Shown here: piece by piece, positions 3,460 through 47,364 of the stretch | Layout: each line of letters begins with the position of its first letter | Position numbering within the stretch: the stretch's first letter is position 1 | Assembly: GCA_030390025.1 (NCBI GenBank) | Contig: CM059432.1 | Coordinates: forward strand, 58,282,001 to 58,346,000 | Source of the DNA: Squalus acanthias | Lineage: Eukaryota | DNA: 64,000 nt | Direction: 5' to 3' | Translations under genes and position numbers: made by a program | Notes under the pieces: generated by a model | Told to the model about the DNA's origin: nothing | Seen by the model: only the letters and a program-made list of their open reading frames with translations | Database searches by the model: none

Positions 3460-6400
3460 GTCCTTTGGCGCCACCCCTGTATCCGCAATTTCTACCCTTA
3501 CTTCCCTCAGTATCCTAGGATGCATCCCATCCAGACCGGGTGACTTATCCAGTTGAATTACTGCCAGCCTTTCCAGTACCTCCTCTTTATCTATTTTTAT
3601 CTCATCCAGTATCCCAGCAACCTCCTCGTTTATCAGAAAAAACTGAACCCCTTAAGAGTCAAGGTGGGCTCTGTCTTACCCGTGCTCCCTGGTACAGCAC
3701 ACGTATCACTGCGTCTGGGGGTGGAACACCCCAAACCAAAGCTGGATGAGGCTCTGCTCACATGCTGCAAAGATCTGAGGACAGATTTTTCTCTTCAGCT
3801 ACACCAGCAGCACCTCAGTGGGCGTGCGAGGCAAACTGAACAGGGAGCCAGTCTGCCAACTCCCCAACCTCCAACTTCTGCCACTTCTGTGATTTTCCAC
3901 CAGCAGAAATATTAAAACAAGGTGCAAATGATGGGATGAAGGCATACAATGTATTTCCCATCCTTTGTGCCTTAGCGACACTGGGCATGAGGAACGCTGA
4001 TGCATTCCTGCTATCCACCACCTCTATGGGCTACAGCAGGTGTGGAGGGTTACACTTTAAAGGGCTACAATGTGATTGATTGCATTCGTCAAAGTGACAA
4101 ATTCAAAATTGAAGATCATAATTTTTTTCGTCCTGTTCAGCCATCAAAGAGCCACAGCAGTTTCCCCCCTTGCCTCACCACCTGAGACGAGTACTCCAAT
4201 GACACCTTAAGTGGTACCTGCCCTCTCCCATATTATTTAACTTACCTGCCCCACCAAAGATCAGGCGCCATTGCGGCACAGATGAAAATTCCCCTCGGTT
4301 TAGAACTACATTTCAGGGGTGATGTAGGCAGTAAATTTAAAAAGTCAAATTGTGCATATACTTGCAAGTGCAAAACCACCCCCTCCCCCACTCTTCTCAA
4401 ATGCTCTGAATTAGTTGCACGTTGCTAAATGGGTTTTAAGCATCTGGCCCAGAAAATGCTGAATTTTACATTAAATGTGCATTCTTTTTACTTCACAGTT
4501 GGTAGATTTTTAATCTAAAAAAATTTCATTTGAGCCAATTTATGCGAGGTTGGCTAGTATAGTACGTTGAATCAGACATTTAGGGTTATATGGGTAGAGG
4601 GCACTTTGGCCAATAGTCAACAAATGAACAGAAACATGACTAATTAACATGAAAATCGAAGACTGAATATATTGCTAATTTATTTGAACAATTTAGTGTG
4701 ATAATACACCTGTTACTAAAAGTTTTATTTTTTCAAAAACCAAGTACTCAGGCTGTTTTTGAACTATCAGCGTCCCTAATCTATGATTCATATATCCTTA
4801 TCATTCACACACACTCATAGTTCTGTAATTTCACAACATTTTTTAAAACTGGTACAAAGGTTTGTTTCACTGCTGCACTGTGGACATCAAATCGGCCAGC
4901 CCATGGGTCGAAGCAGTTAAGCATGGTAAACACAATTCAAAAGCATCAATTCAAGTAGTGTCAAGCATGTTTCAACCTGACCTTCAGATTAATGACTTCA
5001 GGTTTTTTCCACAGGGTGTTCTCACCATAAGAAGTAAGTTTATCTTTATTTAATATTTTATTCGTTTAGACCTGGATGAAGTTATCAGATCCTGAGAAAT
5101 AGTCATGTATAATAACAAGCAGACTGGTCTTTTGCACACTCAAAATGGATGTTCAGTGATTTGATTTTAAGCATTGTTATTCAGAAGGTGAGAAAACATA
5201 TTACTAACCCAGCCTTTTAAGGGTAATCATGACTTTAGATGACCTATTTAATTTACTTGGAATTACTTTATTAAGATATTGATGGTATTTGAGCCATTGA
5301 ATCAATAAAGGTTATACCGTCAATGAAGTATCAACCCCCACTTATTTTAGAAGGCATTCTTAAATTATTGAGCATTTATAAAGTAACTTGTCTATGGTAA
5401 TGCCTGTTTAATTACGCTGCTCAAAATGTCTCTTACTGCCTGCTCATTCTTATGACTCACCACCATCTGCTATTACTTTAACCTCAGCTTCCCACCCCCA
5501 GCAGTGCTGTCCAATTAGGACAGCAAGCAGCAGGACACATGATTGCAATGACTAATTGGATTGCTGCAAAATAAAATCACAAGCTGGCAGCCTGGGAGAT
5601 GGGTAAATTGCCAGCTCACCCTGCTTATACTGCAGTAGTTGACTCATCACTCAAAAAGGAAAAATATATGGATTTGTGTGAAGTGCCTACACTGGCGAGT
5701 CTGTAACCAAGTCACTTGACTTATAGTGGTTGCTTTAGGAAAGAAATAAGTTGCTCCTCCTTATTATAATGATCCTTTTGTTCCAAATTCCCAAATAAGC
5801 AGTAATGACCAAAGTTTTCTGCGGTTAACTGTGAGCACAAGAAGCCTTAACTGGTACAAAAGCAAAATACTGCGGATGCTGGAAATCTGAAATAAAAACA
5901 GAAAATGCTGGAAATACTCAGCAGGTCAGGCAGCATCTGTAGAGAGAGAAACAGAGTTAACGGGCTCGATTTTACCAGGCCCGAGGAGGCGGGTTTGGAG
6001 GCGTGTGAGTTGTCAAAATCACAAAAAATGGTGGGTGGGTCCGATCCCGCCTCTGAGCAATTTTCCCACATTCGTGGTTTCAGACCCCATTTCCATCCTG
6101 CCTCTAAGAGGCGGGATAGGCCCTTAACAACCAGTTAATTGACTCTATAATCTCATTTTGAGAGGCCTTTCTGATTTTAACACATTTCCCCCATCCAGCA
6201 CGTCTCCTCTGGAACACGCCAGTTAATCCTGGCAGCCTCACAAGTGGAGTGCTTACTAACAGCTGCAGCTCCACCATTAAAAAGGAGTTTTCACCAATGA
6301 TCATTTGCAGGTGGCAGAACTTTGTTGTCTCAGGTCTGGGGGAACTTTTAGCAGGCCTACTCATTGTTGTGGAAGTTTGGAGCCTGACACCCATCTCCAG

Positions 6401-6471
6401 TGTGACCTCCTGGGAAACACCTCTCCCCACCTTGACTGAGCGCTTCCCCCACTGAGGTATATAGCAGAAGC

Positions 6472-6698
6472 ATGGGAACCATTTATTTCCTTTCCTCCTG
6501 GACATCATATTCGGACGATGACCAGCCGCGGCAGCAGCAGAACCCTGAACAACAGCACCACCAACTGCAGGAGGAACAACAGGAGCGCCAACCTGCTGCT
6601 CACCCACCTGAAGCTGCACAGGCCAGAAGGCACCAGCGCGCAACCACATTGCTGCCCGGGATGCAAGGGACGCACTCATGTTGGCCAGATTTGCTTAG
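6472..6698 (+). pseudogene. Harbinger transposase remnant (N-terminal ~57 codons joined to the last ~18 codons)
   Basis: '[12 protein letters not shown]...RRHQR' matches the copy C N-terminus; it runs straight into DNA matching C's end 'HIAGRNARDELILARFA*'. Confidence 0.85.
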
Positions 6699-6954
6699 CC
6701 TGCACAATCAAACACTTTTGCCTCGCACCTTCTTACCAGAGCATCGACAATGGACAAGAACCTGCGGATTCCTATCATTCTGACCACCATACTGACAATT
6801 GCAAGTCGCCCTAAGCCCTCAATGTGGAAGTCCCATTTGCGAAATGACACAGGCCACAACTTCAACAGTTTGCCATCAATATGCCATCATAACAATTCAA
6901 GGATGGCTTGTCAAAGTTCAATACAACAGAACACCCAAGTGTCTACCCTTGTGA

Positions 6955-8938
6955 CTACTTGTGCTTTATCTTCCTCTTACGCATGCTCCTACGTGGTGCT
7001 TCCCCTGTGGCTTCAGCAGATGTGGAGGCCCCTTGCTCACTTTCTTGCTGCTCCTGTCTCAACACCTTTGGCGGCCGTCCTCTGGGTTTGGGAACCTGTG
7101 AGGGCTCGGCAACAGTCTGCTGCTCCTGCGGCTGTGCAGGGGATGAGACGCCCATCTCAGTTGGGTGAGGACTCTGGTGGGGCTCTGACCGAGGGCTTTG
7201 CAGTGGCATGCTCATGTGAGCGCTTGGAGAGGAGCCCCCACTTCTTTGTTGTCAGCCACCAACATCCCTCTCATGGGTCAGCCCCACTTCAGAGCTAGCA
7301 AGTGGCTTGACAGCACTTTGCTGCACTTCAGGGGGGCCACGAGGACCCGTTTCTGCACTGGAAGCCCTACTCCAGAGGACTTCCATGAAGGTCTAGTTTC
7401 TATGCTCAATAGCTGACCATCGCTCCTTCAGAGATGTCAGTCTATTCTGAACAATGACCACGTTTTCAATACCCTGGCGACTAAGCTCCTCCATGGCCGT
7501 AGCCATCCTCTCCTCTACCGTAGCCATCCTCTCCTCTATGGTAGCCAGCCTTACCACTGAGGTAGCCATCCTTTCTATGGAGGTTGCCATCCTTTCCGTG
7601 GTGATGCGTTCATGTGCCAATGCCTCCACAAAGGCTCTGCTCATGTTCACGATGGACTCCTCCATTCACTCCACACTCACAGCGACCCTGGAGACAAAAC
7701 CTGCCAGAGTCTCCTGCACCTGTTCCTGGAGTTCCATCACCGCTCTCCTTCTGGATGGACCCGGAAGCATAGGGTTGACATGCAGCTGAGCCGAGCTGGC
7801 AGAGTCCTGCGCCCTCCAATGAGGACTTTCCACTGCTGTCCCTGTCTCCACCATCTGCTGATGCTCACTTGTGAGCTGTGATACACCAGGTGACAACACT
7901 ACCCTATCTCGCGAAGGTCCCACTGAGGTGTGAGTGTCTGCGCTGGTGCTGGGTGCACTGAATTCTGCTGACGCTGCGCCCTCAGAGGTTGGAGCTTCCT
8001 CTGAGGAGTCTTGAGGCTCAGGCTGTTCCTCCTGGACAGTGGGGACGGGGGCTCTCGATGGTCCTGTGGGGGAGTAAAGGAAAGAGTTAGAGATGTGAGG
8101 TAAAGGTTGCATGCACGTTGAATTGTGCAGATGATCATAAGTCAATCTGTTAGAGCATCAGAATCATTATCAGTCACTCATGCAATGTCAATGAGAGAGA
8201 TGCTAAACTATTCTGTCACCAGCTTGCTGTGATGCGCCCGTCTGTCCGTCCCCCACTTGTGAATCGTCCTCCACTCCGGCGTTCTCCAGGGCCGCCTCCT
8301 CTGAAGTGGTGAGCTGGGCTACTGAGGGTGGCCCATCTCCTGTCCTCGCTCTTTCCCTCTTATTGTGGGCTCTCTTTTCCTACAATGAGGGACACAAGTG
8401 GAGTTTGAGTGAGAATGAAGGAGTGAGTGTAGAGAATCCATAGCATAGATGCTTAGAAGGAGACAAAGGGCCCTCCCTGTGTGTTCTAAGTTGTTGTCAT
8501 TGCATCACAGTGATAGGGAGTGTGAGGGCTGCATGGTTGAATAGTTAAGTAAATGTGACCATAGAGAGAGAGGGAATGGGTAAGGGTGCAGGGATGTAAG
8601 TGTCAAGTGGGATGTGGAGGAAGAGGTTGGCAAAGCAGAGTGCTGGTGAGGAGAGGCAATGGGGATCAGATTGAGGCTGATGGGAAAGTCATACTCACTT
8701 TTCCTGTGCGGAGAAGGTCATGAAACCTCTTCCTGCACTGTTGCCAGGTTCTGCTGCACATAGAAATTGCGTTTACCTCTTGGGCCACTTGCAGCCACAC
8801 AGCTTTAGTCTGCTGGGGAGGCTGTTTCCTCCCTGAGGAAGGGAAGAGCACCTCCTTATTTGCTCTTGCTCCCTCCACCAGAGCTTAGAGGGAGGCCTCA
8901 TCGAATCTTGGAGCACACTTTGGTCTACTGGTGGACAT
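6955..8938 (-). pseudogene. Myb/SANT-like DNA-binding gene of copy A, exons 8938-8699, 8379-8220, 8063-6955
   Basis: 'PRFDEASL...KAVWLQVAQEVN...RTWQQCRKRFHDL' Myb/SANT motif; GT-AG introns; four in-frame stops consistent with C>T changes, no frameshift seen. Confidence 0.9.
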
Positions 8939-9218
8939 AGTTGCTGAAGGAAGCGCTCAGAACAATGGGCATAAAGTTTAAAGGCTGAAAAAGAAGCAAG
9001 GCTGATTGCAGGCCTTAAATCCAGCAGCATTGATGACGTCATCGGAGGCAACTTTCTGTATGAAAAAACTCATTGGGCCAGGGGTTTCCACACGCTGGAA
9101 ATCAAGTGCCCAATTAGGGCAAAATCGCACTTTTGTCCTACTTCACATCGGAGTCGGGATCCTGACACGACGACCACCTGACACGCCCCAGCCAGCCCCC
9201 AATGGCAAAATCAAGCCC

Positions 9219-9247
9219 AACGTTTCAGGTCAATGACCCTTCGTCAG
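9219..9247 (-). ncRNA. Minimal hammerhead ribozyme motif of a Penelope terminus (helix I disrupted)
   Basis: Minus strand CTGACGA-AGGGTC-ATT-GACCT-GAAAC-GTT = CUGANGA core, stem II, GAAA, palindromic ACGT. Confidence 0.65.
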
Positions 9248-10026
9248 GAACGTTCTGTTTCTCTCTCTACAGGTGCTGCCTGACCTGAGTATTCCCAGCA
9301 TTTTCTGTTTTTATTTAAGCCCTAACTGGTATTGGTTTAGAAAAATAGATAGAGGAACTGAAACAATACTCCTCTCCATTGTGTCTGCCAGTCAGGATGC
9401 CTGTGAATGTTATGCTCAATAGCTGACTTGACCCACTCTTGTAAAATGCTGGTTTTCTCACGATTGTGTGCTAACTTTTCACTAATAGATCATTGAGCTT
9501 CATAGATATGAATCTAAGCACTCCGCATTGGAAATAATCCTCCTTCAGCGACCTTTCCCATGGCTCATCTCTCTTCTTGAATGTTTTTAAACTCTCTTAA
9601 ATCAATTCTTCCTAATCATTTGGCCTCCCAGTTTCCCCTGGTTCTGTATATTATTTTCCTTGTGCTAACTCTCTGTTTCATTTCAATATTGTCATTGCTG
9701 CAGCTCCTCTCTTTCGTTCCTAATTTCTGAACTAGTCTGGGAACTCTGCTCCTCTGTTCTTCCTTTCCCAGAAATCTCCGAGCACAGAGAGTCTCTTCCA
9801 CTTGATTCCCTGGCTGCTTCACCTGTGAATTTGCACTTCTCTAGCCAATAGAGTTCTCACCTCACAAATCCCGCCCCCTGCCACCAGTCACCACTGTTTA
9901 TCAATGGTCACTGAGCAGCCAGGTCCAGCCTTGCCATTTGCTGCCTCTTCAGTTCAACCTCCTGACTGATAGTTGCAGGAACAAATTGAAGGTTTGCACA
10001 CTCTCCAAAGGCCACCCTAATCCTCG

Positions 10027-10125
10027 AAACAAAAACAGGAAATGCTGGAAACACTCAGCAGCTCAATATTTTCCACATCTATGGATAAAACAGACAAGTT
10101 AACATTTCAGGTGTAACCCTTCACT
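10027..10125 (-). repeat. Decayed Penelope terminal fragment
   Basis: Similar to 5890-5961 and 48990-49085 (aaatgctggaaacactcagcag...gttaacatttcagg). Confidence 0.6.
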
Positions 10126-10938
10126 GACCCAATCCCAGAAGTGTTGCCTATGACCTTCCTACACACTACTCCTGTTGATGCTGGTAAATCCACTTTATAT
10201 CTAAAAGAGCTGAGCATAATAGGGAACGGCATCTTTGGGAAGAGTGCCCAGATGAACTTTGGAAGCAGAATCTGCACCAAAGCCCTTAGCAACCATTGGG
10301 AGCTTACTGGTGTTTCTAATGAATGAGATACAGTGACAAACAAAATGTTAATCTGCAAAGCAAACTACAACCTTTTTAAGTAAGACTCACTTGTATAGAT
10401 GCAACATCTGAGAGAGAATTATGGTAATGACGGCTTTCTTACATAAGTGATAACTCTGTTTACAACAGAGGGAGAATACTGATTACCGCAATATGATTGT
10501 AATATGTAAGCAGCTTTCATTTCCCTGTGAGACTGATTCTATTACCTCCTGAGACCTCACTATAAAAAGGTTCCAATTATACAGCCTGAACAGGCTATTT
10601 TAGTTCCGTTATACAGAGGTGATATACAATGAATAAAAGTTACAGGTAAGTTGATGATACATTATATAGGGCACAGTGGCCTGCTAAATTACTATGGAAT
10701 TGGTTTGTAAATTATGGCTTAGGTAATAAAACCATCAGAAAAGTAGATATAAAGTAGATAATACAGAAATGCACACAGGTCTTACTACGGTGATGAATCA
10801 TCCTAATCGCGCCAACAACAAAGTGACATTGCTATATTCTGGCTAGAACCTAGAAAAGAAATCGAAGACCTAGAAATTCATCTACGTTTTTCAGGTGCGA
10901 AACAGCCTACTAAGCTCCCAATATGGCGGGAAGGAAGC

Positions 10939-13680
10939 GCACTAACATCTGGGGACTTGTGCCAAATTTGGGAGAGCTGTCCCACAGTCTAGTCAAGCAA
11001 CAGCCTGACATAGTCATACTCACAGAATCATACCTTTCAGCCAATGTCCCAGACTCCATCACCATCCCTGGGAATGTCCTGTCCCACCGGCAGGACAGAC
11101 CCACCAGGGGTGGCGGCACAGTGGTATACAGTCAGGGGGGAGTGGCCCTGGGAGTCCTCAACATTGACTCCGGACCCCATGAAGTCTCATGGTTTCAGGT
11201 CAAGCATAGGCAAGGAAACCTCCTGCTGATTACCACCTACCGTCCTACCTCAGCTGATGAATCAGTACTCCTCCGTGTTGGACACCACTTGGAAGAAGCA
11301 CTGGGGATAGCAAGGGCACAAAATGTCCATCACCAAGAGTGGCTCGCTAGTACCACTACTGACCGAGCTGGCCGAGTCCTGAAGGACATAGCTGCCAGAC
11401 TGGGCCTGTGGCAGGTGATGAGAGAATCAACACGAAGGAAAAACCTATTTGACCTCATCCTCACCAATCTACCTGTCGCAGATGCATCTATCAATGACTA
11501 TTTGTAGGAGTGACCACCACACAGTCCTTGTGAAGCCGAAGTCCCGTCTTCACACTGAGGACACCCTCCATCGTGCTGTGTGGCACTACCACTGTACTAA
11601 ATGGGATAGATTCAGAACAGACCTAGCAGCTCAAAACTGGGCATCCATGAGGCGCTGTGGGCCATCAGGATTGTATTCCACCACAATCTGTAACCTCCTG
11701 GCCCGGCATATCCCTCACTCTACCATTACCATCAAGTCAGGGAACCAACCCTGGTTCAATGAGGAGTGCAGAAGAGCATGCCAGGAGCAGCACCAGGCGT
11801 ACCTAAAAATTAGGTGCCAACCTGGGGATGCTGCAACACAGGACTACATGCATGCTAAAAAGCGGAAGCAGCATGCTATAGACAGAGCTAAGCGATTCTA
11901 CAACCAATGGATCAGATCAAAGCTCTGCAGTCCTGTCCCATCCAGTTGTGAATGGTGGTGGACAATTAAACAACTCATGAATATCCCCATCCTCAATGAT
12001 GGCAGAGCCCAGCATGCGAGTGCAAATGACAAGGCTGAAACGTTAGCAACCATCTTCAGCCAGAAGTGCCGAGTGGATGATCCATCTCGGCCTCCTTCTG
12101 AGGTCCCCACCATCACAGAAGCCAGTCTTAAGCCAATTCGATTCACTCCACGTGATATCAAGAAATGGCTGAGCACACTGGATACAACATAAACTATGGG
12201 CCCCAACAACATCCTGGCTATTGTGCTGAAGACTTGTGCTCCAGAACTAGCTGCGCCTCTATCCAAGCTACAACACTAGCATTGACCCGACAATATGGCA
12301 AACTGCCCAGGTATGTCCTATCCCCAAATAGCAGGACAAATCCAATCCAGCCAATTAATGCCCCATCAGTCTACTCTCCATCAGCAAAGTGGTAGCACTG
12401 TCGACGACACCTTCCATCAAGCGGCACTTGCTCACCGATGCTTAGTTCGGGTTCCGCCAAGACCACTTGGCTCCAGACCTCATTACAGCCTTGGTCCAAA
12501 TATGGACAAAGGAGCTGAATTCCAGAGCTGAGGTGAGAGTGACTGCCCTTGACATCAAGGCAGTATTTGACCCAGTGTGGCATCAAGGAACCCTAGTAAA
12601 ACTGAAGTCAATGGGAATCGGGGGGGAAAGCTCTCCACTGGCTGGAGTCATACCTAGCACAAAGGAAGATGGTTGTGGTTGTTGGAGGTCAATCATCTCA
12701 GCCCCAGGACATCGCTGCAGGAGTTCCCCAGGGCAGTGTCCTAGGCCCAACCATCTTCAACTGCTTCATCAATGACCTTCCCTCCATCATAAGGTCAGAA
12801 GTGGGGATGTTCGCTGATGACTGCACAGTGTTCAGTGCCATTAGCAACTCCTCAGATAATGAAGCAGTCCATGCCTGCATGCAGCAAGACCTGGACTGAT
12901 GTGAGACACGAATGTTGCTTGCCACTTAAGTGCTAGGCAGTGACTATTTCCAACAAGAGAGTCTAACCACCGCCCCTTGACATTAAACGGCATAAACATC
13001 ACCGAATTCCCCCACCATCAACATCCTGGGGGTCACCATTGATCAGAAACATAACTGGACCAGCCACATAAATACTGTGGCTGCAAGAGCAGGTCAGAGG
13101 TTGGGTATTCTGTGGCGAGTGTCTCACCTCCTGACTCCCCAAAGCCTTTCCACCATCTACAAGGCACAAGTAAGGAGTGTTATGGAATACTCTCCACTTG
13201 CCTGGATGAGTGTCGCTCCAACAACACTCAAGAAGCTCAACACCATCCAGGACAAAGCAGCCCGCTTGATTGGCACCCCATCCACCACCTTAAACATTCA
13301 CTCCCTCCACCACCGGCGTACCGTGGCTGCAGTGTGTACCATCTACAAGCTGCACTGCAGCAACTCACCAAAGGCTTCTTCAACAGCACCTCCCAAACCA
13401 GCAACCTAGAAGGACAAGGGCAGCAAAAGCATGGGAACACCATCACCTCCAAGTCACACACCATCGTGACTTGGAAGTATATCACTGTTTCTTCATCGTC
13501 GCTGGGTCAAAATCCTGGAACACCCTCCCTAACAGGTGGGAGTACCTTCACCACAAGGACTGCAGCGGTTCAAGAAGGCGGCTCACCACCACCTTCTCAA
13601 GGGCAATTAGGGACGGGGAATAAAGGCTGGCCTTGCCAGCGACGCCCACATCCCAGGAACGAATATTTTTTTTTAAAAAG
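10939..13680 (+). mobile_element. CR1-clade (Zenon-like) LINE, near-complete ORF2 (APE endonuclease + RT), frameshifted
   Basis: APE 'NIWGL...PDIVILTESYL', 'SDHHTV'; RT 'ALDIKAVFD', 'GVPQGSVLGP', 'FADDCT'; 3' tail ending in T/A runs. Confidence 0.92.
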
Positions 13681-13822
13681 GTGTGATGATGACCCTCATG
13701 ACGTTATTTCCAACTCCAGTATTTAAGGGGCCACTCCAATCATAACACTGGATCACCTACAAGTCTGTGCTCTAAAGCCCGCAAAAACTTTGTGGGCAGC
13801 TGTCAACGAGCTGAATGGTGAG

Positions 13823-21309: not shown

Positions 21310-22590
21310 ATGGCTCAACAGGGCAGAGAAAGGTCACCAAGGTTCTCCAACACAACACAAGAGGCCTTAGTGCAGGGGACAGAACAGAAGAGACAGGTCC
21401 TGCACCCGGAGGGGACCAGTAGGCCCTCCAGATTCACAGTCAGAAGGCAGTGGGAGCAGATAGCCGAAGCGGTCACTACCAGCAGTCTTGCCCCAAGGAC
21501 ATGGATCCAGTGCAGGAAGAAGTTCATTGACCTCACACGAGTGATCATGGTCAGTGAATGCATCTTCAAAAACCGTCTCTCACCAACTGCACCACTAGCA
21601 TCACACACTACTCCATGCATCACTCACCTACCAACAATCTCTATCAATCACCACTCATACCTCACATTCATAGCTTCACCTCACCCTCACACACTTACCA
21701 CTGCTGCAAGCCTCACTCCCACATCTCACAGCTTGCACACACTGCCAGCTATTCAACCATGACCAGCACATCACCCAAACACATTGCACCACACTCACTG
21801 ATGCACTTCCCTTTCTCTTGCAGGTCAAAGTGACTAACAACCATAGGCAGCAGCAGGTAACCAGTGGGGGACGGGCAAGCCTGCATATTCTGACCCAGCT
21901 GAAGGAGACCGTACTGGACATTATTGGAAGGGTCCTCACTGAGGCCGTGGCGATCGTTGAGGCTGAAACCATTGAAGATGACAGTATGCTCATACCTAAT
22001 CCTCCTTCTCGTATCCCACTTCCCCCTCATACCACAATCTTTTACTTACAAGCTCCTGATGGTGTAAGCATGCACATCTTGCTTTCCGCCCCTTCCCTCA
22101 CCACAACCCTATGCTTGTGCCTTTCTCCTTTCAGAAACCCAAGAACTCCAACCTGGCCAGCCAGTGCAAGAAGAGCAAGAGTGATGCAGATGAAGAGACA
22201 ACGACACTTGATATCACACTCGCACACACCAGCTCCGAACCTCACAGCGCCCGTACTTTAGAGGATAGTATAAAGGCGGAATCTGCATGTGGTAAGTCAC
22301 TGGCATGAGTGGCCTGCAGTCAGTGCAGGGGGAAATCGTAGCACAGGTGCCAGCTCCTCGAGGGTGAGATCGCACACGAGTTCTGCTGCAGAGGACTCAT
22401 GAGGACTTCAATGAGATGGCATACAGAAGAAGGATGATGGGCATGTACACAGAAATGCTTGGTGCATTAGCAGGCCTGCTAGAGAGCCTGTTGTCACTGT
22501 CAAGGAGCATGGAGGAGTCCGGCACCAACCTTGCACAGGGCTTTGCGCAGAGCTTGGAGCCCATGATTTCCCAGATGGAAATGCAGGTCT
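21310..22590 (+). pseudogene. Myb/SANT-like gene of copy G, exons 21310-21549, 21824-21983, 22135 to truncation
   Basis: 'RERSPRFSNTTQEALV...QWEQIAEAV...RTWIQCRKKFIDL'; exon sizes 240 and 160 nt as in A, B and D. Confidence 0.85.
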
Positions 22591-33000: not shown

Positions 33001-33213
33001 GATTATAGAGGCAATTAACTGCTTGTTAAGGGCCTATCCCGCATCTTGGAGGCGGGATGGAAACGGGGTCTGAAACCCTGATTCTTGGAAAATTGCTCGG
33101 AGGCAGCTGGAGGTGGTATCGGAGCTGCCCGCCATTTTTTGCGATTTTAACACCTCACACACCTTCAATCCCGCCTCCAATCCCGCCTCCTCGGGACTGG
33201 CAAAATCGAGCCC
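30029..33213. mobile_element. Harbinger copy B, non-autonomous (same family as A and D, opposite orientation), 3185 bp
   Basis: Perfect 16-bp TIR GGGCTCGATTTTGCCA; TSD TGT/TAT; transposase remnant on - at ~32478-32681. Confidence 0.95.
30309..32225 (+). pseudogene. Myb/SANT-like gene of copy B, exons 30309-30548, 30861-31020, 31175-32225
   Basis: Exons 1 and 2 open ('MSSSRPKCAPRFDEASL...CRKRFHDL'); exon 3 has frameshifts near 31400 and 32080 and a stop. Confidence 0.9.
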
Positions 33214-34469: not shown

Positions 34470-37400
34470 CTGGGAGGTGGTGGACATGCCCTTGGCAGTT
34501 GGCAGGAGGTCCAAACAATTTTGGTGGTCAGGCCTCCCATTCATGCAAGAGGCAAGCTGCCAGCACTAATCATGCTGGCTATAGGCAGCTTATCATTTGG
34601 GAGGGTGGGAAATCCAGTGGGCCTGCTGCCACTTAAAGGCAACCTGCAGCCCTAAAAGGGGAGGTGCACTTTTCAAAGGGAGGAAGTGGAGAGCACGTTA
34701 CTGAGGCATCAGGCAGCATTATGTTGTTCTGGGTTTACCCAATTCTCTGATGTATCCAAGGAGGTGCTTGCAGTGCAAGTGAGAAACAGGAAGGAGGCCG
34801 TCCTTCACTCCGATAGGCTATGGGTGCCCCATCAAATTAGCCAGCAGCAGTGGAAAAAATTGGTTGGGCAGGTCAATGCTAGAAGCATAGTTCCAGGGAC
34901 CTTGCTGTACTACAGACAGAACCTTACCAGAATTACTAAGCTAAGACTAATCTTCATATTTCTCTTGCTCTCTACACTGCCCTGCAACACCAGACTTGAG
35001 CCCCAGCACTAGCAACCCTTCCCTCCACCACTTCACAAGCCTTCCTTCCAATCACAAAAGGACACTTCATTGCCCCTCCTTTTTTCAGTCACTCACACAC
35101 TGCTATTGCCTTCACAACAACTTCCCCCTCTTGCCCACACTTGATGCTTCTTCCTCTCAGCATGCACACTTGCTAAGCTGCCTCACATATCTTCAAAACT
35201 CTTCTACAAGGCATACATTAACCCACTCCCATTCTTCTTGCAGGAAAAGCTGGCGCACAATCGAAGGGAGACCTCAAGAACAGGAGCAGGTTGTGCCACG
35301 TAGCAAAGTTTGACTCCAATGGAGGACTCCACCATCAACCTCATTGGCAGAGGGAGGATGTGCACCATTGGAGATGGCAAGACTGGAGGCCGTGCATGGC
35401 AGGGTGTTTGGGCATTTTGTCTTTTCACTTAACTCCTAAACTCTCTCACTTGCACACACAGAATGATAACCTGGTGCTGCATTGCGCTGCCACTCATCTG
35501 CCTCTGCTTATCCTTGACATTACATGCTTCTGCCCTTTTTCTAGGTCCTTCAGATGACTTCTGCCCTGTAGCCACGCAGATGGAGGGGGAGGACTCTCTT
35601 GAAGATGCAACGTTACTTGCTCTTACTATTGCAAGTACCAGCACAGAAATCGACTACCCGCATGGTACAGATAGTGAGTTAAAGGGGTCTACATAGATGA
35701 GCAGAAGCAGGTGCAGTTGGAAAGGAAACAGCTCACTGGAGGAGAAGCAAGTATCCTAGCTCTGCTGAAAAGGACAGAGGTGCAGACTTTAGGGGCCCAG
35801 TTGTTAAATGAAAATTGATTTCTGCATACCAGCAGTTGCTGAATGTAGTGGAATGCCTGCCAGAAAACTACTGCAACATGTTTGAGAGTGTGGAGGAGTC
35901 TATTACCAACTTGTCTGGGGATCTGATGTACTCTGCAGTGCATGGAACTTGTGGTCAACTCAATCAATGCTGCTGCTGGGCCCTCCTTGCAGGAGTCAGT
36001 GGCACCAGTGGCATTTCTCAGAGATGGTCATATTGGGGCCATGCAGGGTCTGGGCTCCACCATCTCCTCTGTCATGGACAGGCTGGAAGACTGAATGGAT
36101 AAGGATTTCAGCTGCATTACAGATCTGTTACAGTCATGGAGGTTTTGAGCCGGAGCAGGGGCAGTCATGCAATGGGAAGGGAACGTGTTGCTCTTTCCCA
36201 AGAGGATAGCTTGTTTGGATTGTCGCCGCCCCCCTCAACCAACGCCCGCCCTGGTGGCAGAAAGCCAGCATGGATCAGATTGCCTTGGCAGCCACCGAGT
36301 AGCTGCAGTTTGCAGCCGAGCCCTCTCAGTCCCAAGCTACTACAGGTTGACAACCAGAAGCATCTGAAGAACCCTTGACTGAGTCACAGCATTCTTCCAC
36401 CTCCCAAACTGAAGCTACTGAGGAAGCACCTTGTATAAGCGCCAGAGAAAGTAACAGATCACTTAACACAGGCGCCATGGGCTCGCACCTGGGTGATAAT
36501 TAATGAGTAGGCATTTGTATAAGACAGTAAAATGATTTAAAAAAAATGAAATCTTTGTGTGCAGAGTGTTCCTGTAGTAGCTGGGGCTCCTGCAATGTCA
36601 CGTGACATGAATATCAATGTTGGTCTTTGGGCAGATGCAGTTTATTTGAGGGTGGAAAGACTGGGAGAGATGACTTGATGCTGGGGAGCAGGGATTGTTC
36701 AGCTGAAGTGCTCTTCAAAGAACTCTGGCTGAAGGCAAGTGTTGGAGCCCTCCTGCTTCCTCGCTATCCTCTATGTCATCATTGCTTGAGGACTCCGATG
36801 GGCGGCCCAGTGAGGTCACTGGTTGATCCATGGATCTGATTGTAGCACAGTTCAGCTACCCAGCATAGCTTCCTGCGAGGAATCATGAGCCAAGTGAGCT
36901 AGCAACAGCCTTCGTACCCAAGCAGCCAGCCTCTCACCTTCTGTGCAGGGGAAAAGAGTGGGGGGAATGGAGGATTGATACAATATAAAAGCATCACGAT
37001 AGTTGCCAGGAAAGCAGGCACAGACCTGCATGATACACTGCTAATGATCACACACTAGCTCCGCTTTAGTACAGTGGAAGCCTTTGTGATTCATGAAGGC
37101 ACTGAACTCGTCTGAAGGAGTCCGCAGGGCGATGTAGGTGCAGTGAATGAGGCTGTGGACTTGAGGGTTGCCTACAATCTATGTGAACCCAGCAGCCCTA
37201 TCCTGCTGACCACTGGGGAAAGTGATGGAAGTGTTTGCTCTAGAAAACAACGGCATCAGTCACCTGCTTAATGTAAGAACGAAGTGCTGACTGACTGATG
37301 TTATAATATCCGCTGTGGCAGCCTGGAAACAGCTGGAGGCAAAGAGGTTCAGTGCTCTAGTGAGTTTGACTGCACCAGGCAATGCTGTGCTAGCTCTGGC

Positions 37401-37590
37401 AGTTGGTTGTAGATCTAATTGCATCTTCCTTATGCGCTACTCCTCAGAGAAGTGCACATATGTTGTCCTCAGCCTACAAGCTCTTTTGGGAGGGTAATAA
37501 TTCCTGCAAGGGTGCCTCCTTCTAATTGCTCTCTTTGCAGCTGCAGCTCTGCTCCTTCCTCCTATAGCAGTAATAATATATAGACAAAGG
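34470..37590. mobile_element. Old, degraded two-gene Harbinger copy F; termini not resolved
   Basis: Myb remnant on + ('QFSDVSKEVL...QQQWKKLVGQVNARS', 'ag|EKLAHNRRE' at ~35244) convergent with a transposase remnant on -. Confidence 0.8.
36690..37500 (-). pseudogene. HARBI1-like transposase pseudogene of copy F
   Basis: Minus-strand fragments 'NLFASSCFQAATADI', 'LIHCTYIALRTP', 'FPGNYRDAFIL', 'GWLLGYEGC' match motifs of the copy C transposase. Confidence 0.8.
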
Positions 37591-39311: not shown

Positions 39312-39624
39312 ACTGTTTCTAACCTCTATACAGACATGCAGGGGGCGATTTTCCCATTGGAGGCGGGTTGGGAGCGGTTTTCGGTTTGGGTCGGTTCCAA
39401 ACCCGCCTCCACTGTCAGGTGGGAAAAAGTTGGGATTTTCCCCAAATTGGCTAATTAATTCCAGGCGTGTGGGTTCCCCTGGGCCAATTAGTCTTTTGGG
39501 ACTGAAACTCGCCTCTGCTGACGTCACTTATCCAGCTTCATTTAAGGGCTGTTTGCTTCCTTGGCTCATTCCGCTGCTATTTGGTGAAAGCTACACAACC
39601 TGCTAACTTTGGAAGTCGAGAAAA

Positions 39625-41580
39625 ATGGCCAGCTCCAAGGCCAAGGCCTCCCCAAGTTCTCGGATGAGGCGCTGAGTATTCTGGTTGAGGGGGTGAGAGC
39701 TAGCAAGGAGGTGCTCTTCCCCTCATCTGGGAGGAAGAAGCCTCCCACACAAACCAAGGCTGTGTGGGTGCAGCTGGCACGGGATGTAACCTCCAGGTCT
39801 GTGTGCAGCAGAACATGGCTGCAGTGCCGCAAAAGGTTCAATGACCTTGTAAGATCAGCCAAAGTGAGTATACCATCAGCTTGACCCTCCTTCTGCTCCC
39901 CTTTCCTCTCATCACCAGCACTCTGCATTGTCAACCTCCTCCTACACATCCCACTTTACCCTTACAACCCTTGCACCCTTCACCATCCCTCTCACTCTAT
40001 GAACACAATCACTTCACTATTCAACTATGTTGCCCACACACTCCCTATCAATGTTATGCAATGACAACGACTAACAACACACAGGGAGGGCCCTTGGAAA
40101 TGGAACCTCACTCCATCTTTGTCTCCTTCTAAGCATCTATGCTCTGGACTCTCTACATTCACTCCATCATTCTCACTCAAACTCCACTTGTCTCCCTCAT
40201 TGCAGGAAAAGATAGCCCACAATAAAAGGGAAAGGGCGAAGACTGGAGGAGGGCCACCTTCCCTTGTCCATTTGACCAATGCTGAAGAGGCGGCCCTGGA
40301 AATCGTTGGCGCTGAGGTGGAGGTGGAAGTGGGGGACGGACAGATGGGCGCAGCAGAGCAAGCTGGTGACAGAATAGTTTTGCATCTCTCTTTTTTACAT
40401 TGCAGGAGTCACTAGTATGGCTGCGAATGTACATTTATAGAATGGCAATTGATCATCTGCGCTATTGCATGTGCATGCCACACTACCGTAACATCTCCAA
40501 CTCATTCCTTTACTCCTCCATAGGACCATCGACAGCCCCCCTCCCCAGTGTCCAGGAGGAAGAGCCTGAGGCGGAAGACTCCTCAGAGGAACCTGCAACC
40601 TCTGAGGACGCAGCGTCAGCAGATGTAAGCACACCCAGCACCAGCGCAGGTGCGCACACCTCGGTGGGACCTTCGGGACATAGAGTAGTGTTGTCACCTG
40701 GTGGATCACAGCTCACAAGTGAGCATCAGAGACAGGGACAGCAGTGGAGAGTCCTCGTCGGAGGTCGCAGGACTCTCCTAGCTCTGCTCAGCTGCATGTG
40801 GACCCTGTGCCTCCGGATCTATCCAGAAGGAGAGTGGTGCTGGAACTCCAGGACCAAGTGCAGGAGTCTCTGGCAGATTTTGTCTTCAGGGCCACTGCGT
40901 GTGTGGAGAGGATGGAGGAGTCCAACTCAAATATGAGCAGAGCCTTTGTGGAGTCATTGACGCATGAGTGCATCTCCTCGGAAAGGTTGGCTACCTCCGT
41001 GGTATCCATGGCTGCCTCTCTGCAGACGATGGCCAGGGCCATGGAGGAGCTAAGTCACCAGAGTGTTGAAAACATGTCCAATGTTCAGAATAGACTGACA
41101 TCTCTGGAGGAACGATGGTCAGCTATTGATCAGAGAAACCAGAGCTTCATGGAAGTCCTCAGCAGTAGGACTGCCAGTGCAGAGACGGGTCCTCATGGCC
41201 CCCCTGATGTGCAGCAAGGTGCTCTCAAGCCACTTGCTAGCGCTGAGGTGGGGCTGACCCATGAGAGCGATTTTGCTGGTAGAGAACAAGGAAGTGGGGG
41301 CTCCTTTCCAAGCGCTCACACTTCCATGCCACTGCGTTGCCCTCGGTCAAAGCCCCACCAGAGTCCGCATCCAACTGAGATGGGCATCTCAGCCCCTGCA
41401 CAGCTGCAGGAGGAGCAGACTGTTGGCGAGCCCTCACAGGCTCGCAAACCCAGAGGACGCCCGCCAAAGGTGTCCAAGCAGGAGCAGCATTAAAGTGAGG
41501 AAGGGGCCTCCACTTCTGCTGAAGCCAAAGAGGAAGCACCACGTAGGAGCACGCATAAGAGGAAGATAAAGCACAATTAG
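39625..41580 (+). pseudogene. Myb/SANT-like gene of copy C, exons 39625-39863, 40206-40365, 40524-41580
   Basis: 'KFSDEALSILVEGV...KAVWVQLA...RTWLQCRKRFNDL'; apparent 1-nt deletion near 39655, 10-nt deletion near 40729, premature TAA at 41491; AT-hook KPRGRPPK. Confidence 0.88.
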
Positions 41581-41826
41581 TCACACGGGCAGTCACTTGG
41601 GTTTTTTTTTGTCTTTAATAATTAAATGCCATCCCTTTGTGAATGTATTAAACTCTGGTGATGGCAAACTGTTGACGTTATGGCCTCTGTGATTTCGATT
41701 TTGGAAGTTACCACATTGCGGCCTCAGCGAGACTGGCTTGGTCAGAGTGAGAGGAAGCCAGAGAGTCAAGTCCATTGTGTATCTTGTTCTAAGAAGGAGC
41801 CAAGCACATGTGCTAGAATGGGCAAC

Positions 41827-43047
41827 CTAAGCAAATCTGGCCAAGATGAGTTCATCCCTTGCATTCCGGCCAGCAATGTGCTCGCGTGCTGCTGCTGCTG
41901 CTGGTTGATCCGCCTCTGCTCGGTCCTCCTCCTCCTCCTTTTCATCTGAGGAGGCTATGTACTGAGCCACTTGCTCCTCAGGAAGCTGCAAGCCACGATG
42001 CTGTGCGATGTTGTGCAGCGCATAGCAGACCATGACCATTCTGGAGACCTTGGCTGCTGAGTACTGCAGGGCTCCACCTGATCGATCAAGGCATCTGAAT
42101 CGCATCTTCAGCAAGCCGATGGTTTGTTCGATGATGGATCTGGTCGAAATGTGGCTGGCGTTTTAGCGCTCCTCAGCTTCATTCGCTGGCCTCCTGATTG
42201 GCGTCATTAGCCACGTCTTCGGGGGGTAGCCCTTGTCTCCAAGTAACCATCCGTTAAGTTGGTTTGGCGGTTGGAAGAGCGGAGGCACACTAGACTGCCG
42301 CAGGATGAATGAGTCATGGCAACTGCCACAGTACTTGGCGCAAACATGCAAAATCTCCTTCTTGTGGTTACACACTAGCTGTACATTGAGGGAGTGGAAG
42401 CCCTTGAGGTTGACAAAAATAGCTGGGTTGTGATGGGGTGCCCTAAGGGCCACATGTGTGCAGTCTATGACGCCCTGCACCATTGGCAAGCCTGCCATAT
42501 TTGAGAATCCAACCGCACGCGCGGTTATACTTGCTTGATCCGTTGAAAAGTTGATGTAATTGTGCGCCTTTGCGAAGAGGACATCGGTAAACTGCGTGAT
42601 GCAACTGTGGGCAGCCGACTGGAAGATGCCGCTGATGTCTGCTGATGATCCCTGGAAGAAGCCTGAAGCAAAAAAGTTGAGTGCGGTGGTGACTTTGACA
42701 GCCACTGGTAAGGGGTGTCCACCCGCTCCTCTGAGGTCCAGGTGTTGGTGCAGCATTGCGCAGATGTATCCGACAACCTCTCGCGAAAGTCTCAGCCTCC
42801 TTTGGCACTGCTGCTCACTCATGTTGAGGAAGCTCATCCACTGTCTGTAAACCCTGAGATGAGGGTATCTCCTGCGGTGACGTTCTGCCATGCGCTGGTG
42901 CCTTCTGTCCTGTGCACCATCAGGTGGGTGAGCAGGAGGTTGGCGCTCCTGCTGCTGTTGCTGCTGTTCTGCCTGGTTCTGCTGCTGCCGTGGCTTCTCC
43001 TCGTCCGAATTGGAGGTCCATGATGAAAGGAAATAAATGTTTCCCAT
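41827..43047 (-). pseudogene. HARBI1-like DDE transposase, 406 codons, single premature stop at 42163-42165
   Basis: 'GVIDCTHV', '[11 protein letters not shown]', 'GSCHDSFIL', 'LLGDKGYP', 'IEQTIGLLKMRFRCL'; ORFs 42163-43119 and 41827-42114 are in the same frame. Confidence 0.95.
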
Positions 43048-44200
43048 GCTGCTGGCAGATACCTCCGTTGGGGAAGCGCTCAGTCCAAGTGGGGAGAGGG
43101 TTCTCCCAGGAGGTCCCAAAGTAGATAGATCTCAGCTGCACCACCTCCGACTTCAGTAGGCCTGGAAAAAGTGCTCAAAGACCTGTGGGGAAAAGTTCTG
43201 CAACCTGCAACTCATCCCTGCTGAAAGCTCCGTTTTTATGGTGGAGCTGCAGCTGTGAGGAGGCCAGCCACTTGTCAACCCACCAGGATTAGCTGGCGTG
43301 GTTTAGGAGGGCCGTGCAACACGCTGAAAATGTGATAAAACAACAAAGGTCTGGCAAAATAGGATTAGAGAGGCCCTTAACCGCTTGTTAAGGGTCTTAA
43401 CCGCCTATCCTGACTCATGGAGGCGGGACCGAACTACATGAAGTCCGCCTCCGGCAAAATTGTGCGGAGGCAGGTTGGAGGCGCATTCCGAACCCACCCT
43501 CAATTTTTTTCGATTTTCCCAACTGTCCCGCCTCCAACCCTCCTCCTCAGGGCTGGGAAAATCGCCCCCGCACTGTCAGTTATATTTTCAGTCTTGTAAT
43601 TCTAAGCTTTTAACTATAGAACCAATATGAAATGGAATCTAATATAAATGGATTACTCTTGGACAAAATGGATTTGTTTACTATCTCCTGATCTTGATCT
43701 CTAACAAGTGGTATTGCCAGAAGCAACCCATGTAGAAAAAAGTGTATTGCCAGAAGACACTTAAGAGTTCACAAGGTTATACAGCCACTCAATGTGCCTG
43801 GCAGGAATGCCAGAACCTCGCACAGTTGCTGCTGACCTTCTATCATTCTCCTTTTCATTGATGGCCCCCCACGTTACATAGGATTACATAGGATGTACAG
43901 CACAGAAACAGGCCATTCGGCCCAACCAGTCCATGTTTATGTTCCACTCGAGCCTCTTCCTGTCTTTCCTCATCTAACTCTGTCAGCATAACCCTCTATT
44001 CCCTTCTCCCTCATATGCTTGTCTAGCCTCCCCTTAAATGCATCTATATTATTTGCCTCAACTACTCCCTGTGGTAGCGAGTTCCACATTCTCACCACTC
44101 TCTGGGTAAAGAAATTTCTACTGATTCTATTGGATTTCTTGGTGACTATCTTATATTGATGGCCTCTACTTATGCTCTTCCCCACAAGTGGAAACACTTT

Positions 44201-47200
44201 GGGCTCGATTTTGCCAGGCCCGAGGAGGCCGGATTGGAGGCGTGTGTGGTGTTAAAATAGCAAAAAATAGCGGGCGGCTCCGATCCCGCCTCCAGCCCGC
44301 CTCCGAGCAATTTTCCCAGAATCGGAGTTTCAGACCCCATTTACATCCCACCTCCAAGAGGTGGGATAGGCCCTTAAGGCCCTTAACAACCAGTTAATTG
44401 CCTCTATAATCCCAATTTGAGAGGCCTTTCTGATTTTTAACACATTTCCCCCATCTCCTCTGGAACACGCCAGTTAATCCTGGCGGCCTCACAAGTGGAT
44501 TGCTTACTAACAGCTGCAGCTCCACTATTGAAAAGGAGTTTTCACCAATGATCATTTGCAGGTGGCAGAACTTTGTTGTCTCAGGTCTGGGGAACTTTTA
44601 GCAGGCATACTCATTGTTGTGGAAGTTTGGAGCCTGACACCCATCTCCAGTGAGACCTCCTGGGAAACCCCTCTCCCCACCTTGAATGAGCGCTTCCTCA
44701 ACTGAGGCATATACCAGAAGCATGGGAGCCATTTATTTCCTTTCCTCCTGGACATCAGATTCGGACGACGATCAGCCGCGGCAGCAGCAGAACCATGAAC
44801 AACAGTAGCACCAACAGCAGCAGCAACAACAGGAGCGCCAAGCTGCTGCTCACCCACCTGAAGCTGCACAGGCCAGAAGGCGCCAGCGCCGACCACATTG
44901 CTGCCCGGGATGCACTCATGTTGGCCAGATTTGCTTAGCCTGCACAATCAATCACTTTTGCCTTGCACCTTCTTACCAGAGCATCGACAATGGACAAGAA
45001 TCTACAGATTCCTATCACTCTGACCACCATACTGACAATTGCAAGTCGCACTAAACCCTCAATGTGGAAGTCCCATTTGCGAAATGACAAAGGCCACAAC
45101 TTCAACAGTTTGTCATCAGAATTTTTTATCACAACAAGCAACTGATGGCATTTCAAAAATAAACACAACAGAACACCCAAGTGACTACCCTTGTGACTAC
45201 TTGTGCATTATCTTCCTCTTGCACGTGCTCCTACGTGGTGCTTCCCCTGTGGCTTCAGCAGATGTGGAGGCCCCTTGCTCACTTTCTTGCTGCTCCTGTC
45301 TCGACACTTCTGGTGGCCGTCCTCTGGGGTTGCGAACCTGTGAGGGCTCGGCAACAGTCTGCTGCTCCTGCGGCTGTGCAGGGGATGAGACGCCCATCTC
45401 GGTTGAGTGAGGATTCTGGTGGGGCTCTGACCAAGGGCTCTGCAGTGGCATGGTTGTGTGAGCACTTGGAGAGGAGCCCCCACTTCCTTGTTGACTGCCA
45501 CCAACATCCCTCTCATGGATCAGCCCCACTTCAGAGCTAGCAAATGGCTTGACAGCACCTTGCTGCACTTCAGGGGGGCCATGAGGACCCATTTCTACAC
45601 TGGAAGTCCTACTTCAGAGGACTTCCATGAAGGTCTGGTTTCTATGCTCAATAGCTGACCATCGCTCCTCAAGAGATGTCAGTCTATTCTGAACAATGAC
45701 CATGTTTTCAACACTCAAGCGACTTAGCTCCTCCATGGCCGTAGCCATCTTCTCCTCTACTGTAGCCATCCTTTCCACGGAGGTTGCCATCCTTTCCGTG
45801 GTAATGCGTACATGCACCATTGCCTCCACAAAGGCTCTGCTCATGTTCGCGATGGACTCCTCCATTCGCTCCACTCTCGCAGCAACCCTGGAGACAAAAC
45901 CTGCCAGAGACTCCTACACCTGTTCCTAGAGTTCCAGCACCGCTCTCCTGGATGGACCCGGAGGCAGAGGACTCTCCACTGCTGTCACTGTCTCCTCCAT
46001 CTGCTGATGCTCACTTGTGAGCTGTGATATACCAGGTGACAACGCTAATCTATCTCGCGAAGGTCCCACCGAGGTGTGAGTGTCTGTGCTGGTGCTGGGT
46101 GCGCTGAATTCTGCTGACGCTGCGCCCTCAGAGGTTGCAGCTTCCTCTGAGGAGTCTTGAGGCTCAGGCTGTTCCTCCTGGACATTGGGGACGGGGGCTG
46201 TCAATGGTCCTGTGGGGGAGTAAAGGAAAGAGTTAGAGATGTGAGGTCAAGGTTGCATGCACATTGAATTGTGCAGATGATCATAAGTCAATCTGTTAGA
46301 GCATCAGAACCATTATCAGTCACTCATGCAATGTCAGTGAGAGAGATGCTAAACTATTCTGTCACCAGCTTGCTGTGATGCGCCCGACTTTCCATCCCCC
46401 ACTTGCGAATCTTCCTCGACACCGGTGATTTCCAGGGCCGCCTCCTCCGAGGTGGTGAGCTGGGCTACTGAGGGTGGCCCATCTCCTGTCCTCGCTCTTT
46501 CCCTCTTATTGTGGGCTCTCTTTTCCTACAATGAGGGACACAAGTGGAGTTTGAGTGAGAATGAAGGAGTGAGTGTAGAGAACCCATAGCATAGATGCTT
46601 AGAAGGAGACAAAGGGCCCTCCCTGTGTGTTGTAAGTTGTTGTCATTGCATCACAGTGATAGGGAATGTGAGGGCTGCTTGGTCAAATAGTTAAGTGAAT
46701 GTGACCTTCGAGAGAGAGGGAATGGGTAAGGGTTCAGGGATGTCAGTGTCAAGTGGGATGTGGAGGAAGAGGTTGGCAAAGCAGAGTGCTGGTGAGGAGA
46801 GGCAATGGGGATCAGATTGAGGGTGATGGGAAAGTCACACTCACTTTTCCTGTGCGGAGAAGGTCATGAAACCTCTTCCTGCACTGCAGCCAGGTTCTGC
46901 GGCACATAGAGATGGAGTTGACCTCCTGGGACACTTGCAGCCACACAGCTTTAGTCTGCTGGGGAGGCTTTTTCCTCCCTGAGGAAGGGAAGAGCACCTC
47001 CTTATTTGCTCTTGCTCCCTCCACTTGAGCTTGGAGGGAGGCCTCATCGAACCTTGGAGCACACTTTGGCCTACTGGTGGACATAGTTGCTGAATGAAGC
47101 GATCACAACAATGGGCATAAAGTTTAAAGTCTCCAGAAGAAGCAAGGCTGCATGCAGGCCTTAAATCCAGCAGCATTGATGACGTCATCGGAGGTGACTT

Positions 47201-47364
47201 TCTGTATGAAAAGACTCATTGGGCCAGGGGTTTCCACACGCTGGAAATCAAGTGCCCAATTAGGGCAAAATCGCACTTTTTTCCCACTTCACATCGGAGT
47301 CAGGGTCCTGACACGAAAACCACCTGACACGCCCCAGCATGCCCCCAATGGCAAAATCGAGCCC
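44201..47364. mobile_element. Harbinger copy D, non-autonomous (family of A and B), 3164 bp
   Basis: Perfect TIR GGGCTCGATTTTGCCA; TSD TTT/TCT; transposase remnant on + at ~44722-44938. Confidence 0.95.
45197..47084 (-). pseudogene. Myb/SANT-like gene of copy D, exons 47084-46845, 46525-46366, 46209-45197
   Basis: Exons 1 and 2 open; exon 3 has a private deletion near 45965 and a stop at 45926. Confidence 0.9.

Follow-up and report, generated by a model that had tools for sequence, protein, structure and literature searches.

Three transposase-deleted Harbinger elements in the window

The subject of this analysis was a family of Harbinger DNA transposons that have one transposase deletion in common and carry a spliced Myb/SANT gene. 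Three such deleted copies (A, B, and D) lie in a 64,000-nucleotide (nt) stretch of the Squalus acanthias genome (GenBank assembly GCA_030390025.1, contig CM059432.1, positions 58,282,001 to 58,346,000; here called the window), and they had been described in an earlier note made from the letters alone. The window was scanned by self-comparison and for terminal inverted repeats (TIRs), and the copies were then aligned. Copy A (5962-9218, + strand) belonged to subfamily dA, and copies B (30029-33213, - strand) and D (44201-47364, + strand) belonged to subfamily dC2. The positions and TIRs given in the earlier note were correct. The copies were three separate elements, 89-91% identical along their full 3.2-3.3 kb, and the identity ended at the element borders. 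Both TIRs of A carried one mismatch each. Each copy was also said to have its own target-site duplication (TSD), which was perfect in A only (AAC/AAC); the flanks of B (TGT/TAT) and D (TTT/TCT) had one mismatch each.

The alignment placed the transposase breakpoint at the same site in A, B, and D, just 3' of ...CAGCGC. In A, the remnant (6472-6698, + strand) began with ~56 codons from the start of the gene; at 6639/6640 these met its final ~58 nt out of frame. The remnants of B (32477-32681, - strand; junction 32526/32525) and D (44722-44938, + strand; junction 44889/44890) both contained stops, and at the junction they lacked the same further 1 nt and 9 nt. The remnant lacked the helix-turn-helix region. 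An in-frame fusion of the transposase ends was ruled out because the join was out of frame; thus, the last ~18 codons, previously described as joined directly to the N-terminus, were not read as transposase. The sequence RRHQR, reported before the junction of every copy, was present in A, and B and D read RRRQR. A spliced-out intron was also ruled out, since the missing segment ended in AT..AT/AC rather than GT..AG.

All three copies kept the three Myb exons and their splice sites, as had been noted, with GT/AG intron ends and consistent phases. In A, exon 1, which contains the SANT domain, spanned 8699-8938, exon 2 spanned 8220-8379, and exon 3 spanned 6955-8063 (- strand). The corresponding exons were located at 30309-30548, 30861-31020, and 31175-32225 in B (+ strand) and at 46845-47084, 46366-46525, and 45197-46209 in D (- strand), where intron 1 was 319 nt long (46526-46844, GT..AG). 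A Pfam scan that covered exon 1 of B and D placed Myb_DNA-bind_5 above the cut-off in both (E 2e-10 and 1e-9, respectively); exon 1 of A holds a stop.

Every Myb gene copy in the window was disabled. A had stops at codon 18 in exon 1 and at codons 266, 357, and 404 in exon 3. In exon 3, B had +1 frameshifts at 216 and 453 and a stop at 473, and D had stops at 246, 250, and 364 as well as in-frame deletions. The description of these lesions as private was accurate, as they differed among the copies and none was common to the three. Outside the window trio, the codon-266 stop of A recurred across subfamilies, in 10 more deleted copies and in 4 full-length ones, which fits a CpG hot spot. A 21-nt heptad repeat in exon 3 (A 7490-7580 and equivalent positions) varied in copy number among subfamilies, always in frame, and doubled as the breakpoint of a secondary exon-3 deletion.

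The two-gene parent and the shared deletion

A fourth Harbinger element, copy C (39341-43569, - strand, TSD GCA/GCA), carried two genes. These were a DDE transposase gene (41827-43047, - strand; Pfam DDE_Tnp_4) with a stop at 42163-42165 and a three-exon Myb gene (39625-41580, + strand) that was frameshifted and had one stop. C read RRHQR at the site that corresponds to the junction. In the self-comparison, A, B, and D matched C at 73-77% identity in two blocks, split by a gap in the transposase of C, and the earlier note had used C as the reference for the deletion. We built a parent consensus from 17 full-length loci. C, which was only 84% identical to this consensus and had a different TIR, was ruled out as the parent and belonged to a more distant family.

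The parent consensus was 4,322 bp long and contained an open transposase frame (~414 amino acids, 78% identical to that of C, motifs DCTH, GDKGY, and IEQ) and an open 502-codon Myb frame. Compared to the parent, A, B, and D had indeed lost one segment with a single breakpoint; its size was 1,018 nt, not the ~1007 nt obtained with C. The deletion lay between CAGCGC and CAGCAT, and the breakpoint thus sat between short similar words (CAGC). Four letters past the junction, deleted copies carried a diagnostic C (G-to-C) that was seen in 1 of 32 full-length rows.

Abundance and composition of the family

The 3.7-Gb genome was searched for a pattern of 30 letters from immediately left of the junction, which had 1,561 exact matches. 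Among the first 100 of the matches listed, all from contig C1, 68 loci contained the junction and 32 ran into the transposase of the two-gene parent with the same TIR. These proportions put the floor at ~1,060 deleted copies. The deleted derivative therefore had more than 1,000 copies and probably, by a rough estimate, a few thousand, because just 5 of the 17 deleted loci found with a left-TIR pattern were also among the matches to the 30-letter pattern. The left-TIR sample (30 loci) consisted of 16 loci with the junction (two via overlapping loci), 1 with an enlarged version of it, 7 full-length loci, 4 loci that resembled MITEs (miniature inverted-repeat transposable elements), 1 other deletion, and 1 fragment. 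In the right-TIR sample (30 loci), 27 loci were collinear into the Myb gene, and 3 had large internal deletions that kept exon 1.

Some loci carried other deletions. L167 (parent positions 580-1641, on a background like that of full-length subfamily FH) and L212 (parent positions 362-2092) had independent transposase deletions and kept most or all of the Myb gene. The MITE-like loci (L207, L218, L222, and L223) formed a group of 700-760 nt with the same left TIR and ~80% identity to the parent consensus.

As the earlier note had concluded, the source elements had an open Myb frame and no transposase when they spread. The consensus Myb frame was open in seven of the nine deleted groups first defined; the two others were dD3, in which the 3' half of exon 3 was deleted, and dH, which had an exon-1 stop. 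A further suggestion had been that the family was half of a split system. In a system of this kind, described in Caenorhabditis inopinata, elements with Myb alone and elements with transposase alone make up for what the other lacks. A Myb-only half was present in large numbers. However, two-gene parents with the same TIR were common (32 of the 100 anchored loci and 7 of the 30 left-TIR loci), a jump from transposase to right end was found in none of the 30 right-TIR loci, and the transposase frame was still open in 12 of 51 full-length copies. The left- and right-TIR samples thus indicated that the transposase partner is the ordinary two-gene element and that the system is not split, which leaves complementing halves a scarcely credible account. 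The same-TIR partner that had been sought was found in the form of an autonomous-type parent, not in a transposase-only form.

Copies decayed neutrally once inserted. Members differed from their own group consensus by 1.6-3.9%, and the sample contained no young copies, the closest pair among 155 being 2.2% apart. The Myb frame was free of lesions in 6 of the 74 deleted copies and in 3 of the 35 full-length ones, with lesion loads of 2.3 and 2.6 per copy, respectively. These counts bear on the idea that the family served as a regulator, that is, that deleted copies dampen autonomous ones through their Myb protein, which would occupy subterminal sites or titrate transposase, perhaps to the benefit of the host. 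The model for such a repressor is KP, the deletion-derived repressor of P elements. A derivative at high copy number that encodes only a DNA-binding protein would suit this role, and an out-of-frame remnant frame of ~70-105 amino acids was open in four subfamily consensuses. However, the copies decayed neutrally, the remnant has no transposase helix-turn-helix region and is interrupted in B and D, and the Harbingers tested require Myb as an activator, as reported in PMC9710019. We consider a repressor improbable.

The family displayed the general PIF/Harbinger-type features of the PHIS elements: a DDE transposase, a Myb/SANT second gene, and TIRs with a 3-bp duplication. PHIS groups are defined by TSD and TIR, with TWA TSDs for strict PIF/Harbinger and a GGG TIR with CWG TSDs for NuwaI, according to PMC4482050. 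Among 78 complete copies, the 3-nt TSD was exact in 54, had one mismatch in 18, and had two mismatches in 6. The commonest exact TSDs were ATA (9), TTT (7), AAT (6), TAT (6), and ATT (6). TWA (TTA/TAA) accounted for 3 of the 54, outside the strict PIF/Harbinger definition, and although the TIR begins with GGG, CAG/CTG accounted for none, outside the NuwaI definition. The A/T-rich, mostly non-TWA TSDs therefore fit no TSD-defined PHIS group cleanly. At 3.2-3.3 kb and with a whole Myb gene, the deleted copies were not Tourist-like MITEs, which are short and non-coding; multi-copy, TIR-flanked, and disabled in the window, they also did not represent a domesticated Harbinger Myb gene of the NAIF1/MSANTD type.

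One deletion on several subfamily backgrounds

In a tree of whole elements, deleted copies were interspersed among full-length ones. Of 30 loci retrieved with a pattern for the Myb allele of dG and dH, two divergent groups of deleted copies, 19 had transposase sequence. Trees of the junction patch and of the Myb gene were built from 14 deleted and 20 full-length rows, with two per group where possible. In the 193-nt patch tree, the deleted rows occupied one side of a branch, with one state change and a support of 63. In the Myb gene tree, six state changes were forced by the starred branches, and a clade of deleted copies was rejected (approximately unbiased test, p=0.00014). These trees point to a deletion that arose once and is now on several subfamily backgrounds.

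Painting of the informative sites gave a clearer picture for dH. Almost all of these sites in dH copies agreed with FH, a subfamily of full-length elements; the exception was a patch of ~26 consecutive dG-type sites, which extended from parent position ~657 to 1857, or ~200 nt around the junction. The distance between dH and FH was 2.4-4.5% in the six loci for which it was obtained. Of 12 further loci sampled with a junction pattern, together with one sampled before, 6 had the dH patch, 4 were dG, 2 belonged to another mosaic group, and 1 (L282) was a single-crossover recombinant between dG and a full-length element. Groups dG and dE were likewise mosaics of several parts. The results showed that deleted and full-length copies exchanged sequence, both as patches and by single crossovers.

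An assembly or alignment artefact could mimic such exchange in a deleted family that was really one clonal burst. L282 and other lone recombinants might be chimeras made by the assembly, and our alignments were projections onto one consensus. However, the dH patch recurred with identical borders in eight loci on six contigs, and subfamilies that diverge by up to 20-30% at the ends differ by 1.5-3% in the patch. An artefact is very hard to believe in the face of these observations.

Work on Tc1 in Caenorhabditis elegans by Fischer and colleagues in 2003 reportedly revealed sequence exchange among dispersed copies and the resulting mosaics. The dispersed DNA-transposon copies studied here would be similar in this respect; here, the exchanged sequence includes a 1-kb inactivating deletion that would found new amplifying subfamilies. 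Given this precedent and the homologous repair that excision breaks undergo (described in PMC2874221), template switching during the repair of excision gaps was probably the route of exchange.

Contigs that ran across the junction and carried the consensus extra G were found in sequencing runs of three coded organisms, which suggests that the transposase deletion is older than one species. In the openly accessible literature that was searched, we found no report of a Harbinger deletion junction that moves between subfamilies.

Myb alleles after the deletion

The ratio of nonsynonymous to synonymous substitution rates (dN/dS) between subfamily consensuses was 0.1-0.3 in exons 1-2 and about 0.5-1.6 in most exon-3 pairs. 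At face value, the ratio below 1 that was expected for a Myb gene under selection after the deletion was therefore obtained for exons 1-2. Because recombination confounds this test, we set the consensus-pair values aside as proof of post-deletion selection and treat a helper or regulator role as hypothetical. Ratios of copies to consensus (0.53-0.85) were also set aside, as mosaic alleles contaminate them.

Individual alleles were examined in the Myb frame of 62 full-length and 112 deleted copies. CpG-type changes, codons 296-325 (the heptad repeat, where the alignment is ambiguous), and duplicate loci were excluded, along with 12 of 68 full-length copies that diverged by more than 14% from the consensus of the parent. 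Of 250 alleles diagnostic for deleted subfamilies, 202 were also present in at least two full-length copies. The ratio of nonsynonymous to synonymous changes (N:S) of these shared alleles was 111:91, compared to a singleton baseline of 804:248 (odds 0.38), and in the SANT domain it was 21:39 (odds 0.15). Alleles found in no full-length copy had an N:S of 18:9 (odds 0.62, confidence interval [CI] 0.26-1.58, p=0.25), and those found in at most one had an N:S of 36:12 (odds 0.93, CI 0.46-1.98). The purifying signal in Myb thus resided in the alleles shared with full-length copies, and the private alleles were not distinguishable from neutral ones, with wide intervals.

Derivatives with a broken Myb gene were amplified too. 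The secondary deletion in dD3, which removes the 3' half of exon 3, had 124 exact junction matches, and an independent derivative without nearly all of exon 3 had 58. A stop at SANT codon 67 was common to four of the six dH copies with cover, and this allele was present in 3 of the first 100 among 165 FH-type exon-1 matches.

Full-length subfamilies within this one genome showed a purifying signal in both genes. Transposase alleles present in at least four full-length copies had an N:S of 50:38, compared to 354:130 for singletons, and Myb alleles restricted to full-length copies had an N:S of 17:13 (p=0.018; full-length loci among L037-L195). This signal departs from the neutral evolution of DNA transposons within genomes that is reported in PMC7070016, and it could stem from repeated horizontal entry or from dynamics with one active copy per cell.

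A proposed history of the deleted family

The reading that we favor, with a probability of roughly 0.65, is that A, B, and D are decayed, trans-mobilised deletion derivatives whose Myb frame was open mainly through recombinational inheritance from complete elements. A single 1,018-nt deletion between CAGC words, probably mediated by microhomology, would have come first. Judging from what is known of the family, full-length copies with the same TIR would then have supplied transposase in trans, and Myb if it was needed. Sequence was exchanged between deleted and full-length copies, perhaps by template switching as described above. Once a full-length element had received the junction patch, it would become the founder of another Myb-only subfamily whose Myb frame was fresh and open, and this subfamily may then have amplified, perhaps aided by its 1-kb shorter length, before its copies decayed. 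Under this history, Myb would look preserved mainly because the gene was inherited from complete elements by recombination.

Several observations weighed against this history. Success driven by size alone predicts that MITE-sized elements dominate, yet these made up 4 of 30 left-TIR loci compared to 16-17 deleted ones. The support of 63 means that patch monophyly was not rejected rather than shown. In the Myb tree, the position of dA was basal to that of several subfamilies of full-length elements; alleles may thus also have arisen in deleted elements and passed from these to full-length ones, so that flow may run both ways. The interval for private alleles was wide and included the shared-allele value, which makes for a weak test, and the private SANT alleles (N:S 4:4, odds 0.27, p=0.078) leaned to constraint. 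Among 27-48 private changes, 2 were disabling lesions, compared to 4.3-7.6 expected from singleton rates (Poisson p 0.20-0.019), and this shortage of fixed lesions leaves some room for selection. Finally, the broken offshoots were minorities (dD3 in 5 of the 68 deleted anchored loci and dH with fewer than 15 junction matches), and both exon-3 deletions kept the SANT exons.

In a rival reading, Myb is a selected helper, and selection on its own Myb gene keeps the deleted lineage. Extra Myb protein would boost transposition, through DNA binding and nuclear import of transposase, in those cells in which the copy is active, so that derivatives with an intact Myb would out-replicate shorter ones. 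The lesion shortage and the private SANT alleles favor such a helper, as do the seven open consensuses, the lack of a transposase-only form among the 30 right-TIR loci, and the excess of deleted loci in the left-TIR sample (~2:1 over full-length and ~4:1 over MITE-like loci). A published nematode family has the same asymmetry, with MADF genes that are expressed (PMC13668399). Conversely, private alleles overall were no different from neutral, truncated and stop-bearing offshoots spread, and 202 of the 250 diagnostic alleles were shared with full-length copies. In addition, a nuclear DNA substrate offers no obvious cis-preference (PMC7070016). We regard a selected helper as doubtful. Equally tentative is the idea that the deletion behaved as a defective-interfering allele: it would have outlived one wave of autonomous subfamilies after another by way of ~200-nt junction grafts onto each new background. 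Its carriers would be favored because they still make Myb, and deleted copies would form a selected reservoir that also feeds Myb alleles back to autonomous elements.

If recombinational inheritance is the right account, then a gene that is open and looks conserved does not have to reflect selection on the non-autonomous transposon that carries it, because recombination with autonomous copies can refresh the gene and confound the usual dN/dS test. This bears on the interpretation of the published nematode MADF-only families. In this family, nature has also left an extensive record of how a deletion moved from one subfamily of a vertebrate-type DNA transposon to another, as well as of a purifying signal among subfamilies within one genome.

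Comparison with known systems

Amplified Myb-only Harbingers have already been published in a nematode, and the moving deletion is what appears new here. In C. inopinata, Harbinger-1M_cIno and Harbinger-2M_cIno kept a Myb/MADF gene, lost transposase, and expanded (Sato et al. 2026, PMC13668399). These elements are currently active, and the genome contains 19-25 MADF loci alongside a single intact locus with DDE alone. As in that species, a Myb-only derivative expanded in the dogfish genome analysed here with no matching DDE-only expansion. Unlike in C. inopinata, the family exceeded 1,000 copies, its two-gene parents were abundant, the sample included no young copy, and there was no lone DDE-only partner. 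In addition, one deletion moved between backgrounds, which the sections consulted on C. inopinata do not report.

The zebrafish element Harbinger3_DR needs both of its proteins, one of which, Myb, binds motifs in the subterminal regions and takes transposase into the nucleus (PMC9710019). The parent consensus and copy C similarly combine a DDE transposase with a Myb-like protein in one TIR element. By analogy, the parent may work as the same kind of two-protein system, with putative roles for Myb in binding and nuclear import. The present family differs in that its 3.2-3.3-kb derivative keeps the whole spliced Myb gene. In the case of rice mPing/Ping/Pong, smaller PIF/Harbinger derivatives transposed better in yeast (PMC9921582). 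Like mPing, the deleted derivative was presumably mobilised in trans and outnumbers its parent; unlike mPing, which keeps no gene, it retains Myb and saves only 1 kb of 4.3 kb. Harbinger expansions in vertebrates were described without such a Myb-only derivative in the passages of PMC9179366 and PMC5741667 that we consulted.

Spliced reads and other repeats in the window

Eight sequencing runs, whose RNA nature was guessed rather than on record, were examined for spliced Myb reads. The joint predicted for intron 1 was present in two of the eight, X1 and X4, which came from two studies; each of these runs had a single contig with the joint. The short sides of these joints were 28 and 20 nt, and the joints were not assignable to deleted copies. 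The intron-1 joint was absent among the joints listed in the other six runs, one of which was large and had no recorded type. The intron-2 joint was absent among those listed in all eight. Neither absence is evidence. The intron-1 joints modestly support the gene model of the family, not expression from deleted copies.

The window also contained a second, divergent two-gene Harbinger remnant (50130-52553). It consisted of a DDE_Tnp_4 transposase (50229-51105, + strand, 58% identical to that of the parent) and a facing 377-codon open frame (51420-52553, - strand) with a make-up like that of Myb exon 3. Weak tblastn matches (34-48%) to the Myb/transposase consensus at 21334-21540, 35241-35390, 36785-37505, 54286-54477, 56059-56223, and 58569-58772 indicated that the window contains several further Harbinger families. 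A MITE-like element of ~1.06 kb (62822-63885) had related TIRs and apparently another repeat inside, and tblastn against the consensus gave no transposase or Myb match in it. Other repeated stretches were located at 2679-3456, 10914-13726, 25145-27018, 47584-48159, and 57784-58356; we take these to be non-LTR retrotransposon fragments, as their translations resemble pieces of endonuclease and reverse transcriptase.

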